A DNA stretch of 59,631 nt, filler included, from Candidatus Zhuqueibacterota bacterium (GTDB lineage Bacteria; BS750m-G25): NCBI GenBank assembly GCA_016783505.1. It is 2 parts of 2 records of this genome, joined end to end, with 100 filler letters (N's around TTAATTAATTAA, not from the genome) between each part and the next. Parts side by side here need not be neighbours in the genome. Positions count along the whole stretch, not along the records: positions 29,923 to 59,631 come from JADHWK010000027.1; 1 more part is not named here. One strand, 5' to 3'. A model generated the notes under the pieces. That model did not search any database, had not been told where the DNA came from, and saw only the letters and a list, made by a program, of their open reading frames with translations. Position 1 is the first letter of the stretch, and each line of letters opens with the position of its first letter. Made by a program: the position numbers and the translations under genes. This document shows positions 56,363-58,809 of this stretch, piece by piece.

Positions 56363-57106
56363 ATGAGAGAATCGAATTTATCAGAAGTTGTTGATTTAAC
56401 CCAGAGATATCTATCCCAACTGAAGGAACTGGGTGAGGAGGAAATCTTCCTGAACCGCGACTTAATTGCTAGCCTATCACACCTAAGACCCGAGTCGGCT
56501 TCCGACCTTTCTAAATTTTACCGTCAAATCAAGGATTGCCAACTATGTCCCCTGAGTAGAACGAGAACCAACTTAGTCTTTGGAGTCGGTAATCCGGCGG
56601 CGGGGATGGTTCTGGTTGGGGAGGCCCCGGGCCGGGATGAAGATTTACAGGGAGAGCCCTTTGTGGGACGGGCGGGCCAATTATTGAACAAGATTTTGAA
56701 GGCCATTGATTTTGAACGGGCCGATGTCTATATTTGTAATATTCTAAAATGCCGCCCCCCGGGAAATCGGGATCCCCTGCCTGATGAGATCGAGGCCTGT
56801 AAGCCCTATTTGCTGCGACAACTGGAAATGATCAAGCCCCAGGTAATCCTGGTTCTGGGACGGGTGGCCGCCCAGGTTCTGCTTAAAACCAGTTCGGATT
56901 TAGGTAAGTTAAGGGGTAGAATTCATCTATTCGGGAACAGTAAGCTGGTGGTGACCTACCATCCGGCAGCCCTATTGCGCAATCCGCGCTTGAAGCGCCC
57001 AGCCTGGGAGGATGTGCAACTGGCAAGGCGGGTTTACGACGGGATGGAACCCGAAGGGGCGGATGATGAGGAAATAAGTTTGTTCCGGCCACATAAAAAT
57101 ATTTAA
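56363..57106 (+). CDS. udg: Family-4 uracil-DNA glycosylase
   Basis: CQLC, GEAPG, KCRPPGNR, YHPAALL. Confidence 0.95.
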   Translation: MRESNLSEVVDLTQRYLSQLKELGEEEIFLNRDLIASLSHLRPESASDLSKFYRQIKDCQLCPLSRTRTNLVFGVGNPAAGMVLVGEAPGRDEDLQGEPFVGRAGQLLNKILKAIDFERADVYICNILKCRPPGNRDPLPDEIEACKPYLLRQLEMIKPQVILVLGRVAAQVLLKTSSDLGKLRGRIHLFGNSKLVVTYHPAALLRNPRLKRPAWEDVQLARRVYDGMEPEGADDEEISLFRPHKNI

Positions 57107-57220
57107 ATACTAAACCCTGAGATTAATTTTGTAAGGAGATTTTTAATATCAAGACACGTTCAAGTTAATAATAAGTTCGGCGCGCGGCAAAAGCAATGAG
57201 TAGAAAGCACAATCGTTACT

Positions 57221-57502
57221 ATGCAGATAAAATTTGAATGGGATACAGACAAAGCAACAAAGAATATTGAGTAACATCAGGTTTCGTTTAACGAAGCTGC
57301 AACGGTGTTTGGCGATCCGCTGTCCATGACGTTTTTTGATCCTGACCATTCGATTGACGAAAGCCGATATATCACTGTTGGGTTATCACATCTTGGAAAA
57401 CTGCTCGTTGTTTCGCATACAGATCGAGGCAACCGCATACGTATCATTAGTGCGCGAAAAACAACGCGCCGAGAGAGGAAGTTTTATGAAGAACAAAGCT
57501 GA
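57221..57502 (+). pseudogene. BrnT toxin with a nonsense mutation
   Basis: [32 protein letters not shown] at 57272-57274. Confidence 0.85.
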
Positions 57503-57722
57503 TAGGGAAATTGATGACGAGCTTCGTGCTGAGTATGATTTGTCTCAGTTAAAGGGAGGCGTCCGGGGTAAATATGTGCAGCGTTATAACGCAGGTACCA
57601 ATTTGGTATTATTGGCCCCAGACGTGGCCGAGGCTTTCCCCAGTGATGAAGCAGTGAATGAAGCTCTACGGCTGTTAATGAGAATCGCCAAGACTCAACT
57701 CAACCAAGGAGTTCACGTCTAA
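57486..57722 (+). CDS. BrnA-type antitoxin
   Basis: ELRAEYD..GVRGKY..PDVAEAF..AVNEALR. Confidence 0.8.
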
Positions 57723-57935
57723 CATGCGATTTTAGACTGCGTTGTGGTGTGGGGATCGATTTTGTCATGGGAATAGCGTGCCTAACCCCCACTTTAACCA
57801 ACAGCCCTATCGCGCGCAAATCTTTGATAGCATCGAAGGAATGGATGAGGAGCAGCTGCAAAGAGGTTGATGAGTTGAATTCATTAAATTTAACTAAATG
57901 CTGGGGATAATAATTATGGTTGAAAGGAGGAGTAA

Positions 57936-58142
57936 ATGAACCAGTATGTGACCGATACGCGGGTGAAAAAGGGCCGGGTGGCATTGAAAGATGTACCATT
58001 TTCTGATGATAGTGAAGTCAAAGTGGTGGTGATCCCCAAAGCAAACATCTCGAAAATGTCGTTCCAGACCGTGCAAAAATTAACACAACCAATCACTGGG
58101 AATCTTTCTGATGATGTTGTGTCCGAAAGAGAGGACAGATGA
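57936..58142 (+). CDS. Putative antitoxin
   Basis: Small ORF overlapping the vapC start (ATGA); strong RBS. Confidence 0.7.
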   Translation: MNQYVTDTRVKKGRVALKDVPFSDDSEVKVVVIPKANISKMSFQTVQKLTQPITGNLSDDVVSEREDR

Positions 58143-58600
58143 ATGTTTTTGTTGACACCAGTGCCTTTGTCAAATTATATCACCACGAAGCGGGGACGGA
58201 GACGTTGTTTAATTTTCTATACCGACACTCGGAAGATCTTATCTTGTCCATTGCTGATATTACCGTGATTGAGTTGCATTCAGCGTTTTTGCGGCGAGTT
58301 CGCATGGGTGAGATCGCTGTTCAGATAGCGCAATCCGTGTTCACCGCGGTGGACAAAGATTTAAAGTTCATCAATAGTATCGAATTAGATACACCGGCCA
58401 AGCAGATGGCAAGGAAACTGCTTGATGAAGTAGCTCCCACTAAAAATTTGCGGACGTTGGATGCCTTGCAACTTGCCGCGGCAATCTTGGAAAATCATAT
58501 CTTGCCAATTGATTACTTCGTTTCGGCGGATGGGCGTTTGTTAGACATCGCTGCCGAGTATTTTGATACGTTTAATCCAGCGAAGGAGAGTCTTGTATAA
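58139..58600 (+). CDS. VapC PIN-domain toxin
   Basis: VDTSAFVKLY, LRTLDALQLA, FVSAD. Confidence 0.9.
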   Translation: MNVFVDTSAFVKLYHHEAGTETLFNFLYRHSEDLILSIADITVIELHSAFLRRVRMGEIAVQIAQSVFTAVDKDLKFINSIELDTPAKQMARKLLDEVAPTKNLRTLDALQLAAAILENHILPIDYFVSADGRLLDIAAEYFDTFNPAKESLV

Positions 58601-58613
58601 TTTTTTGATAAAT

Positions 58614-58739
58614 ATGGCAGCCCTGCTGCGCAATCCGGGGTTGAAGCGCCCAACTTGGGAGGATGTGCAATTGGCGCGACGGGTTTATGATGGGCTGGAG
58701 CCCGAAGGGGCGGATGAGGAAATAAGTTTGTTCGAGTAG
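58614..58739 (+). repeat. Diverged copy of the udg 3' end
   Basis: Translates MAALLRNPGLKRPTWEDVQLARRVYDGLEPEGADEEISLFE*; matches 56965-57085. Confidence 0.95.
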
Positions 58740-58809
58740 TTGCAGGACTGCCTTGAGTGGTAGACTGCAAGATTTGCAGTCCAATATATGTTAGCTATAG
58801 AAGATTGAA

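Follow-up and report, generated by a model that had tools for sequence, protein, structure and literature searches.

Compact gene inserts bounded by duplicated host-gene ends, without a recognisable recombinase gene, at udg and many other loci of a Candidatus Zhuqueibacterota genome

The DNA analysed here (the window, 59,631 nucleotides (nt)) consists of two contigs of the Candidatus Zhuqueibacterota bacterium assembly GCA_016783505.1 joined by N, C23 at positions 1-29822 and C24 at positions 29923-59631. On C24 the uracil-DNA glycosylase gene udg is followed by a 1.53-kb insert of small genes, all on the plus strand, and then by a second, diverged copy of its own 3' end. This layout recurs behind at least 18 host genes of the same genome, and we see about an even chance that it arose through homology-addressed insertion that replaces the end of a gene, operates genome-wide and needs no integrase. 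The features of the udg locus, with open reading frames abbreviated as ORFs, are as follows.

56351..57106, plus strand: udg host gene, family-4 uracil-DNA glycosylase (PF03167, E 1.6e-39; TIGR00758, 213 bits, above cut-off)
56965..57085, plus strand: live copy of the udg tail, codons A206 to F245 (self-comparison)
57086..57106, plus strand: ending found in the live gene only, RPHKNI and stop, without counterpart in the copy (translation comparison)
57221..57502, plus strand: brnT toxin pseudogene (PF04365, E 3.5e-16 on the residues past the stop)
57486..57722, plus strand: 78-amino-acid gene in the position of the antitoxin gene brnA (ORF; no family)
57936..58142, plus strand: 68-amino-acid gene in antitoxin position (ORF overlapping the vapC start by 4 nt; no family)
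58139..58600, plus strand: vapC, PIN-domain VapC-type toxin gene (PF01850, E 1.9e-7, 32.2 bits against a cut-off of 23.6)
58616..58739, plus strand: displaced copy of the udg tail, 118 nt of homology and then GAG TAG, ending in LFE and stop (self-comparison, translation)
58810..59502, plus strand: AT-rich 230-amino-acid gene (ORF; no Pfam, NCBIfam or PADLOC match)

An earlier note, made from the sequence alone, had read this gene order as udg, a broken brnT, small genes, vapC, a tail copy and an AT-rich gene, and both the ORFs and the Pfam matches bear it out. The two toxin–antitoxin pairs that it named, brnT/brnA and antitoxin/vapC, fared less evenly: the insert has Pfam matches to BrnT and PIN, while its two other genes (57486-57722 and 57936-58142) match nothing in Pfam, NCBIfam or PADLOC, and their names as brnA and antitoxin follow from position only, together with the 4-nt toxin overlap in the case of the 68-amino-acid gene. 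The brnT frame, which starts MQIKFEWD, is interrupted by an in-frame TAA at codon 18 (57272-57274; translation MQIKFEWDTDKATKNIE, stop, HQVSF...) and despite this premature stop scores 59.7 bits against the PF04365 cut-off of 34.5. Approximately 210 nt without a recognisable gene separate the 78- and 68-amino-acid genes; the idea that this stretch holds the decayed remains of a third udg tail, between brnA and the antitoxin gene of vapC, was considered and rejected (BLASTP E 1.6, no Pfam match). The displaced tail begins 15 nt past the vapC stop, and a short inverted repeat sits 3' of it, ahead of the AT-rich gene. GC content 3' of the displaced copy is 33-41%, against approximately 52% in udg, and the 230-amino-acid gene is perhaps the next unit of an array. 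Pfam recognises no recombinase gene between the udg repeats, on a contig that ends at 59631, 892 nt past the displaced copy; the DNA beyond that end may hold a recombinase gene or the tail in a third copy. Upstream, gmk, rpoZ and coaBC precede udg on C24, and an ATG at 56363 is a possible alternative start of udg itself.

The two udg tails (56965-57085 and 58616-58733) are 86% identical over 105 nt without gaps, and a self-search of the whole genome aligned them at 85.95% over 121 nt with one in-frame gap of 3 nt (E 4.8e-32), finding exactly two copies of this tail in the genome. The live tail encodes AALLRNPRLKRPAWEDVQLARRVYDGMEPEGADDEEISLFRPHKNI and the displaced one AALLRNPGLKRPTWEDVQLARRVYDGLEPEGADEEISLFE, each followed by a stop. 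Their 39 aligned codons contain 14 nucleotide differences, 11 synonymous and 3 nonsynonymous (ratio of nonsynonymous to synonymous divergence, dN/dS, 0.09 by the Nei-Gojobori method), and the silent changes CTA to CTG, TAC to TAT and AGG to CGA singled out in the earlier note are all present in the alignment. Translation likewise upholds the two different endings that it described, with the live gene ending in EEISLFRPHKNI (LFRPHKNI and stop) and the displaced copy in EEISLFE and stop. The suggested check of which ending relatives carry returned neither: both LFE and LFRPHKNI are absent from the C-termini of all 29 aligned udg homologues. The copy starts between P205 and A206, inside the motif T-x-HPAALLR, of which T202, H204, P205, A206, A207, L208, L209 and R210 are invariant in 30 of 30 aligned family-4 sequences. 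Single-strand DNA folds for both strands of both copies gave z-scores of 0.51, 0.03, -1.72 and -0.29 relative to shuffled sequences. The udg tail is not an attC-like hairpin; what is repeated is part of the host gene's coding sequence.

The earlier note had placed a further example of the architecture on another contig, and this is indeed the case: on C23, etfB is followed by two tandem units, each closed by its own displaced copy of the etfB tail.

2570..3319, minus strand: etfB host gene (PF01012, E 5.1e-44)
2017..2573, minus strand: cassette A behind etfB, Unstab_antitox antitoxin and ParE toxin genes (PF09720, PF05016; ORFs)
1867..2005, minus strand: first displaced etfB tail, ending in LKMEYPLPRPPGRIVGEGTDAACELVRLLKEEAKVI and stop (repeat comparison, translation)
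1120..1857, minus strand: cassette B, three small genes, the last ParE-like (PF24732; ORFs)
865..1003, minus strand: second displaced etfB tail, ending in VEYPPSRPPGRIVGEGTGAACELVRLLKEEAKVI and stop (repeat comparison, translation)

The starts of these two dead tails differ by two or three codons.

The breadth of the pattern was assessed by comparing the genome with itself for direct repeats of 45-450 nt spaced 250-8000 nt apart, and by running the same script on a 659-kb control made up of 99 udg loci from other genomes, each of at most 8.7 kb. The assembly comprises 2.51 Mb in 89 contigs binned from a metagenome and is 59.9% complete, which limits every statement below that an enzyme was not found in this genome. 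It contains 197 local direct-repeat pairs against 2 in the control, whose short loci under-sample widely spaced pairs, most of the genome's own pairs being 0.3-3 kb apart; 47 clusters of repeat pairs have no distant copy. An automatic filter requiring one copy at the 3' end of an ORF of at least 100 amino acids, and the other copy not, returned 24 rows at 23 ORFs in the genome and none in the control, and a udg tail copy is present at 0 of the 99 control udg loci. From these automatic lists a set of 18 loci was chosen by eye, after removal of tails common to neighbouring paralogues (C35, C69, C5 at 59-63 kb, C81, C87 and C89), of rows on doubtful ORFs (C66, C84 and C1:44435) and of weak matches under approximately 74%.

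As the earlier note had expected, the pattern is general: at least 18 host genes, inspected by eye, show the single layout of host gene, compact insert and displaced copy of the host's own tail. The hosts are udg, etfB (two tandem units), lon, a cation diffusion facilitator transporter gene, a Memo-AMMECR1 gene, a transglutaminase-like gene, a cyclic nucleotide monophosphate-binding gene, sdhB, a GT1 glycosyltransferase gene, a toastrack gene, nfeD, a tetratricopeptide repeat gene, asnB, ffh, a gene at the start of C16, a phosphoenolpyruvate carboxykinase-like gene, a DUF3108 gene and a sugar transferase gene that heads a long array. Each insert consists of one to five co-oriented genes over approximately 0.5-4.6 kb, the first beginning 20-115 nt past the host stop, and at all 18 inspected loci the cargo lies in the orientation of the host gene. 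The tail copy repeats the last 65-400 nt of the host and begins 3-115 nt past the last cargo stop, mostly less than approximately 50 nt. Identities of the tail pairs range from 75 to 98% across the loci, with nfeD at 95% and ffh at 98%. Some repeat pairs are intergenic, and one of these, on C54, has cargo that faces away from the gene lying upstream. At one locus on C5 the order is interleaved (tail, A, tail', A'), as expected if two alleles of one slot had been joined in tandem.

Two stretches of C1 show further arrays. Behind the sugar transferase gene (C1:34242-45500) there are at least three tail copies and six or more toxin–antitoxin-type pairs, beyond which the head of a DegT aminotransferase gene is duplicated, this gene itself being broken into two ORFs. 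At C1:1-4525 it is the head of a beta-helix gene, namely its promoter region and first ~70 codons (MKNKKI.LLFSC...), that occurs four times, with HicAB-type and other small pairs in between; the gene-internal edge is constant in all head copies, the outer edge varies, and a further head lies at C43:916-1137.

By Pfam, the cargo of the inserts is mostly toxin–antitoxin: BrnT, PIN/VapC, ParE with Unstab_antitox and MNT with HepT, as well as UPF0175 with DUF3368, DUF5615, HicA/HicB, AbiEii and TumE. Enzymes are found in the inserts too, among them mannosylglycerate synthase, an FkbM methyltransferase and a B12 radical-SAM enzyme, and so is a 1431-amino-acid BcrAD/BadFG-type protein. At C28:21822-24869 the only cargo gene separating the Memo-AMMECR1 gene from its displaced tail encodes mannosylglycerate synthase, an enzyme that produces a compatible solute; this suggests that the same route would also import adaptive enzymes. 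When the cargo segments of the 18 loci were searched against the genome for a second copy at the DNA level, only short dispersed repeats and the 'A' repeat of the C5 locus matched. A hairpin, GCTTCAAGGTTGCACCTTGAAG, was considered as a motif of cassette ends and rejected, as only 2 of its ~20 dispersed sites are at tail-duplication loci. It lies just past the live stop at sdhB and at the toastrack gene and is otherwise mostly elsewhere (for example C50:11461-11482 and C63:31046-31067), usually with CATTA next to it; it may be a terminator or an element resembling a repetitive extragenic palindrome.

The edges of the repeats offer no sign of a shared recombination site. Among 10 aligned loci there is no common motif at the 5' repeat edges, and the 3' edges fall at the stop codon or no more than approximately 35 nt past it. 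The 5' junctions tend to sit at conserved protein blocks, and the block IPQ..NV.KGNMSLVGPRP marks the start of three sugar transferase tail copies, although protein identity to the live tail is as low as 40% in one of them. Pfam found no recombinase or transposase in any of the 18 inserts, and there is no PF00589 match on either C23 or C24, the eight matches in the genome lying on C36, C44, C59, C62, C82 and C87. With neither a shared motif nor an adjoining recombinase, and with targets so varied, the loci cannot be accounted for by a single site-specific integrase and a single att core, as the earlier note had argued.

A broader version of the site-specific explanation deserves more attention, although we consider it unlikely. 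In this version the loci would be scars of many integrative elements, remnants or satellites whose attP carries a surrogate gene end, with tyrosine recombinases acting in trans or since deleted, and toxin–antitoxin genes would be what survives because they resist deletion. The layout is exactly that of icd, e14 and icdC (PMC13626634), and tandem units, partial target copies and decayed remnants are familiar from tycheposons (bioRxiv 10.1101/2020.12.28.424599). The 116-nt stretch at 98% identity in ffh could act as a core, and the genome's PF00589 matches include a two-integrase element on C59, in an assembly that is far from complete. Such elements would nonetheless have had to use at least 18 different targets with no core common to the 10 aligned junctions, copying tails of 65-400 nt and leaving inserts of just ~0.5-4.6 kb with one to five genes, none of which (0 of 18) retains an integrase gene or a fragment of one; no serine recombinase was found in the genome either. 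Many lost or trans-acting integrases are possible, and they fit poorly with 18 traceless inserts out of 18.

Three further regions of the genome carry genes of, or resembling, mobility functions. The element at C59:25000-29500 comprises two tyrosine recombinase genes (573 and 328 amino acids), HTH_17 excisionase-like genes and a DNA methylase gene, and is a conventional integrative element unrelated to the cassette loci. At C44:2866-5545, a 506-amino-acid deaminase/HATPase_c_4 gene stands between duplicated parts of a tyrosine recombinase gene, namely an N-terminal SAM-like domain and a catalytic fragment of 38 residues. At C89:1060-1879, a 147-amino-acid IS200/RAYT-like gene lies between direct repeats of 190 nt that are 91% identical.

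The divergence between live and dead tails bears directly on whether the duplicates arose where they now stand. Pooled over 16 live/dead tail pairs (686 codons), the Nei-Gojobori method gives a proportion of synonymous differences (pS) of 0.317 and of nonsynonymous differences (pN) of 0.079, or after correction a dS of 0.41, a dN of 0.084 and a dN/dS of 0.20. These pairs have diverged under purifying selection. A dN/dS of approximately 0.55 would be expected if one copy had been drifting neutrally since an on-site duplication with the other under selection, and the much lower value observed indicates that most of the divergence arose while both sequences were working gene ends. This would have happened either between separate lineages or on a mobile element which provides a working end each time it integrates. 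Decay at a later stage makes up a minority of the divergence and shows in the dead copies of the 16 pairs as 4 premature stops and 8 frameshifting gaps. At two loci the gene end is visibly a mosaic: in ffh, a stretch of 116 nt at 98% identity gives way to 16 final codons so strongly diverged that they barely align, and in udg the shared stretch gives way to RPHKNI and stop in one copy and to E and stop in the other.

It is for these reasons that duplication of the target on the spot, through a staggered break or template switching at a replication fork, with the copies drifting apart afterwards, which is the picture of long target duplication drawn by Nobusato and Furuta, seems to us improbable. 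Long target duplication has been documented for restriction-modification units without a mobility gene (PMC2853133); near-identical pairs do exist here, at nfeD and ffh, and the stops and frameshifting gaps are partial decay of the kind that it would produce. It is the pooled ratio, and the still lower one at udg, both far under the neutral expectation, that it does not accommodate, nor does it account for a sugar transferase tail copy with just 40% protein identity to its live counterpart or for endings that differ past the shared stretch, as at udg and in the last 16 codons of ffh.

An error of assembly, with strain alleles from the metagenome stitched together in tandem, is very improbable. 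A fragmented bin of 89 contigs and 59.9% completeness would be open to it, and the differences between copies are typical of related strains or species. Nevertheless, an assembler could pass from the end of the cargo into the middle of a gene only if real DNA contained that junction, the reading frame is preserved across the junctions, where the contigs have no N, and the same architecture stands at 18 loci. Furthermore, when 31-mers were sampled from 56351-59600, 92-94% of them occurred in the contigs of each of three runs belonging to a second study, a measure of word content and not of continuity. Least credible of all is a store of silent tails for programmed switching of C-termini, modelled on the silent pilS cassettes of Neisseria, which the two different C-termini encoded at udg might bring to mind. 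Against it, the host genes encode housekeeping enzymes, stops and frameshifts interrupt the dead copies, most of the differences are silent, and neither an invertase gene nor an inverted repeat was found accompanying the loci.

We therefore return to homology-addressed insertion as the explanation to be set out in full. The tail-replacement capture put forward in the earlier note fits both the anatomy and the mostly synonymous divergence, and the step of capture itself is what we infer from them. In this model, the incoming unit would consist of a replacement end for the host gene together with its cargo, which at udg would be the brnT/brnA-like and antitoxin/vapC genes. The unit would recombine with the resident gene through homology between the gene ends, in or close to the patch that is best conserved (HPAALLR in udg), and it might do so either as a circle, by one crossover, or as a linear piece of tail, cargo and tail, by two, in a reaction of RecA type or of annealing type. 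The outcome would be an intact host gene with a new C-terminus, co-directional cargo behind it and the earlier end further downstream as a dead copy. That dead copy could then serve as the second homology arm when the unit passes to a relative by ordinary homologous recombination, and repeated events would build arrays such as that at etfB. The addiction idea is said to go back to work on restriction-modification units by Handa et al. in 2001 and Sadykov et al. in 2003; applied here, recombinants that replace a resident toxin–antitoxin pair would die and those that add to it would survive, which is probably how toxin–antitoxin cargo would come to predominate.

A stronger form of this proposal, to which we would give appreciably less than an even chance, is that these loci represent a general, recombinase-free cassette system with address labels, active at dozens of housekeeping genes simultaneously. 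Each cassette would carry the end of the gene behind which it belongs and dock at that gene's most conserved patch, the displaced end would provide the arm for onward transfer, and addiction would favour addition over replacement.

Several observations weigh against insertion by gene-end homology. A number of the tail pairs are only 75-86% identical, with identical runs of just 11-22 nt, and such pairs are a poor substrate for RecA, if the present copies mirror the partners at the time of the event. Neither the direction of transfer nor the native tail could be read from base composition or codon use: the live codon is the commoner one at 53 synonymous differences and the dead codon at 70, and GC content at third codon positions is 0.63 in gene bodies, 0.605 in live tails and 0.552 in dead tails. 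ComEC was not found in the genome and the match to DprA is marginal, which at its completeness carries little weight either way; no reverse transcriptase was found in it. Both the 18-of-18 count for co-orientation and the set of 16 pairs rest on loci chosen by eye. The BrnT and PIN toxins are of RNase type according to their Pfam descriptions, no homing-endonuclease family was matched among the udg cargo, and the toxin–antitoxin genes encode no recognisable DNA endonuclease that could drive homing of the kind known from the WHO elements of yeasts. Finally, this genome is the sole member of its phylum in the species-representative collection searched. The best udg genes in a scan of genome contigs are 57-69% identical among the 80 loci listed, a search of 5.8 billion proteins gave no relative at 70-100% identity besides the protein's own cluster, and a degenerate pattern for the peptide WEDVQLARRVYDG had no match in metagenome and viral contigs. 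With the closest udg relatives at 57-70% identity in the contig and protein searches together, the live gene is at most a presumed chimera.

Two other sets of repeats occur in the window. At 32636-34333 a single gene contains 14 tandem units of 123 nt (41 codons), 60-82% identical to the reference copy and repeat-propeller-like, and at 43216-43956 a 277-nt stretch occurs three times, with spacings of 156 and 308 nt and with 66-74% identity to the reference copy.

Among known systems, one close bacterial parallel to the udg locus is the insertion with long target duplication of restriction-modification units, reportedly described by Nobusato et al. in 2000. Such units lie between target duplications of 30 to more than 400 bp, some of which overlap gene 3' ends; they have no mobility gene, occur mostly in competent species, and arise by a mechanism given as unknown (Furuta et al. 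2010, PMC2853133). The likeness lies in a small addiction-type block without transposase or integrase between long, variable direct repeats that copy the target. At udg the direct repeat is well over 30 bp (121/118 nt, 86%) and the insert, at 1.53 kb, is far under 20 kb and contains no transposase, integrase or phage gene; the cargo differs, as toxin–antitoxin pairs and assorted enzymes take the place of restriction-modification genes. The repeats around the restriction-modification units are nearly identical (for example 44/46 and 417/423; PMC2853133), whereas ours are 75-98% identical with mostly silent differences. Also unlike those cases, the loci here number dozens in one genome and include arrays.

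The prophage e14 in icd, reportedly described by Hill et al. in 1989, offers a second comparison. In Escherichia coli K-12 the element brings a gene end of its own and the native end is displaced as the pseudo-tail icdC (PMC13626634). As there, the live gene here keeps a functional end, the other end is displaced and the differences are largely synonymous (PMC13626634). Unlike our inserts of ~0.5-4.6 kb, which have none, e14 is an element of ~15 kb with its own site-specific recombination system (PMC13626634). Neither an adjoining recombinase gene nor one common core, both marks of the e14 type, was found at our loci.

Chromosomal integrons carry arrays of compact, promoter-poor, co-oriented cassettes, many of them toxin–antitoxin, each with a repeat after it. 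Unlike these, our arrays have no intI beside them and no attC hairpin, and the repeat is the end of the local host gene and differs from locus to locus. In the tycheposons of Prochlorococcus, newer tandem units push older ones outward and leave partial target copies and degraded remnants (bioRxiv 10.1101/2020.12.28.424599). Those elements differ in using tRNA targets, in carrying tyrosine recombinases and in excision demonstrated by polymerase chain reaction (bioRxiv 10.1101/2020.12.28.424599).

A further match in logic comes from the WHO elements of Torulaspora and Lachancea yeasts. Each event puts a new 3' end on FBA1 and pushes the previous end downstream, where the fragment acts as a homology arm (Coughlan et al. 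2020, PMC7282813). Further likenesses are a replacement 3' end arriving with its cargo, a displaced fragment, decaying fragments and arrays that grow outward (PMC7282813). In anatomy, udg has the downstream 3' fragment and the apparently replaced live end, and etfB has the arrays. The cargo endonuclease that cuts sensitive host alleles has no equivalent among the family matches here, which for the udg cargo are BrnT and PIN. Further differences are that the host is a bacterium, that many genes are targeted as opposed to mainly one, and that the proposed transfer would be horizontal and not meiotic.

By these analogies the mechanism would not be new in kind, as the restriction-modification duplications and the WHO elements share its logic. 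What is notable here is the density of the loci, the toxin–antitoxin cargo, the arrays and the divergence of the duplicated ends, which resembles that of working genes; our literature search for toxin–antitoxin cassettes with duplicated gene ends or long target duplication found no paper describing such, and in two toxin–antitoxin reviews the latter term appears among the references only. How small gene blocks without mobility genes enter bacterial chromosomes has been a standing question since the description of such duplications at restriction-modification genes in 2000. A genome in which scars occur about once every 50 kb could make it amenable to study, with scars at named housekeeping genes, arrays and repeat identities of 75-98% as useful material. 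For annotation, housekeeping proteins of such genomes may have C-termini of imported origin, and short 'orphan' ORFs 3' of toxin–antitoxin pairs would be dead gene ends. If the address-label system is true, it would constitute a bacterial counterpart of the WHO elements and a third way of building arrays, besides integrons and integrase-borne islands.

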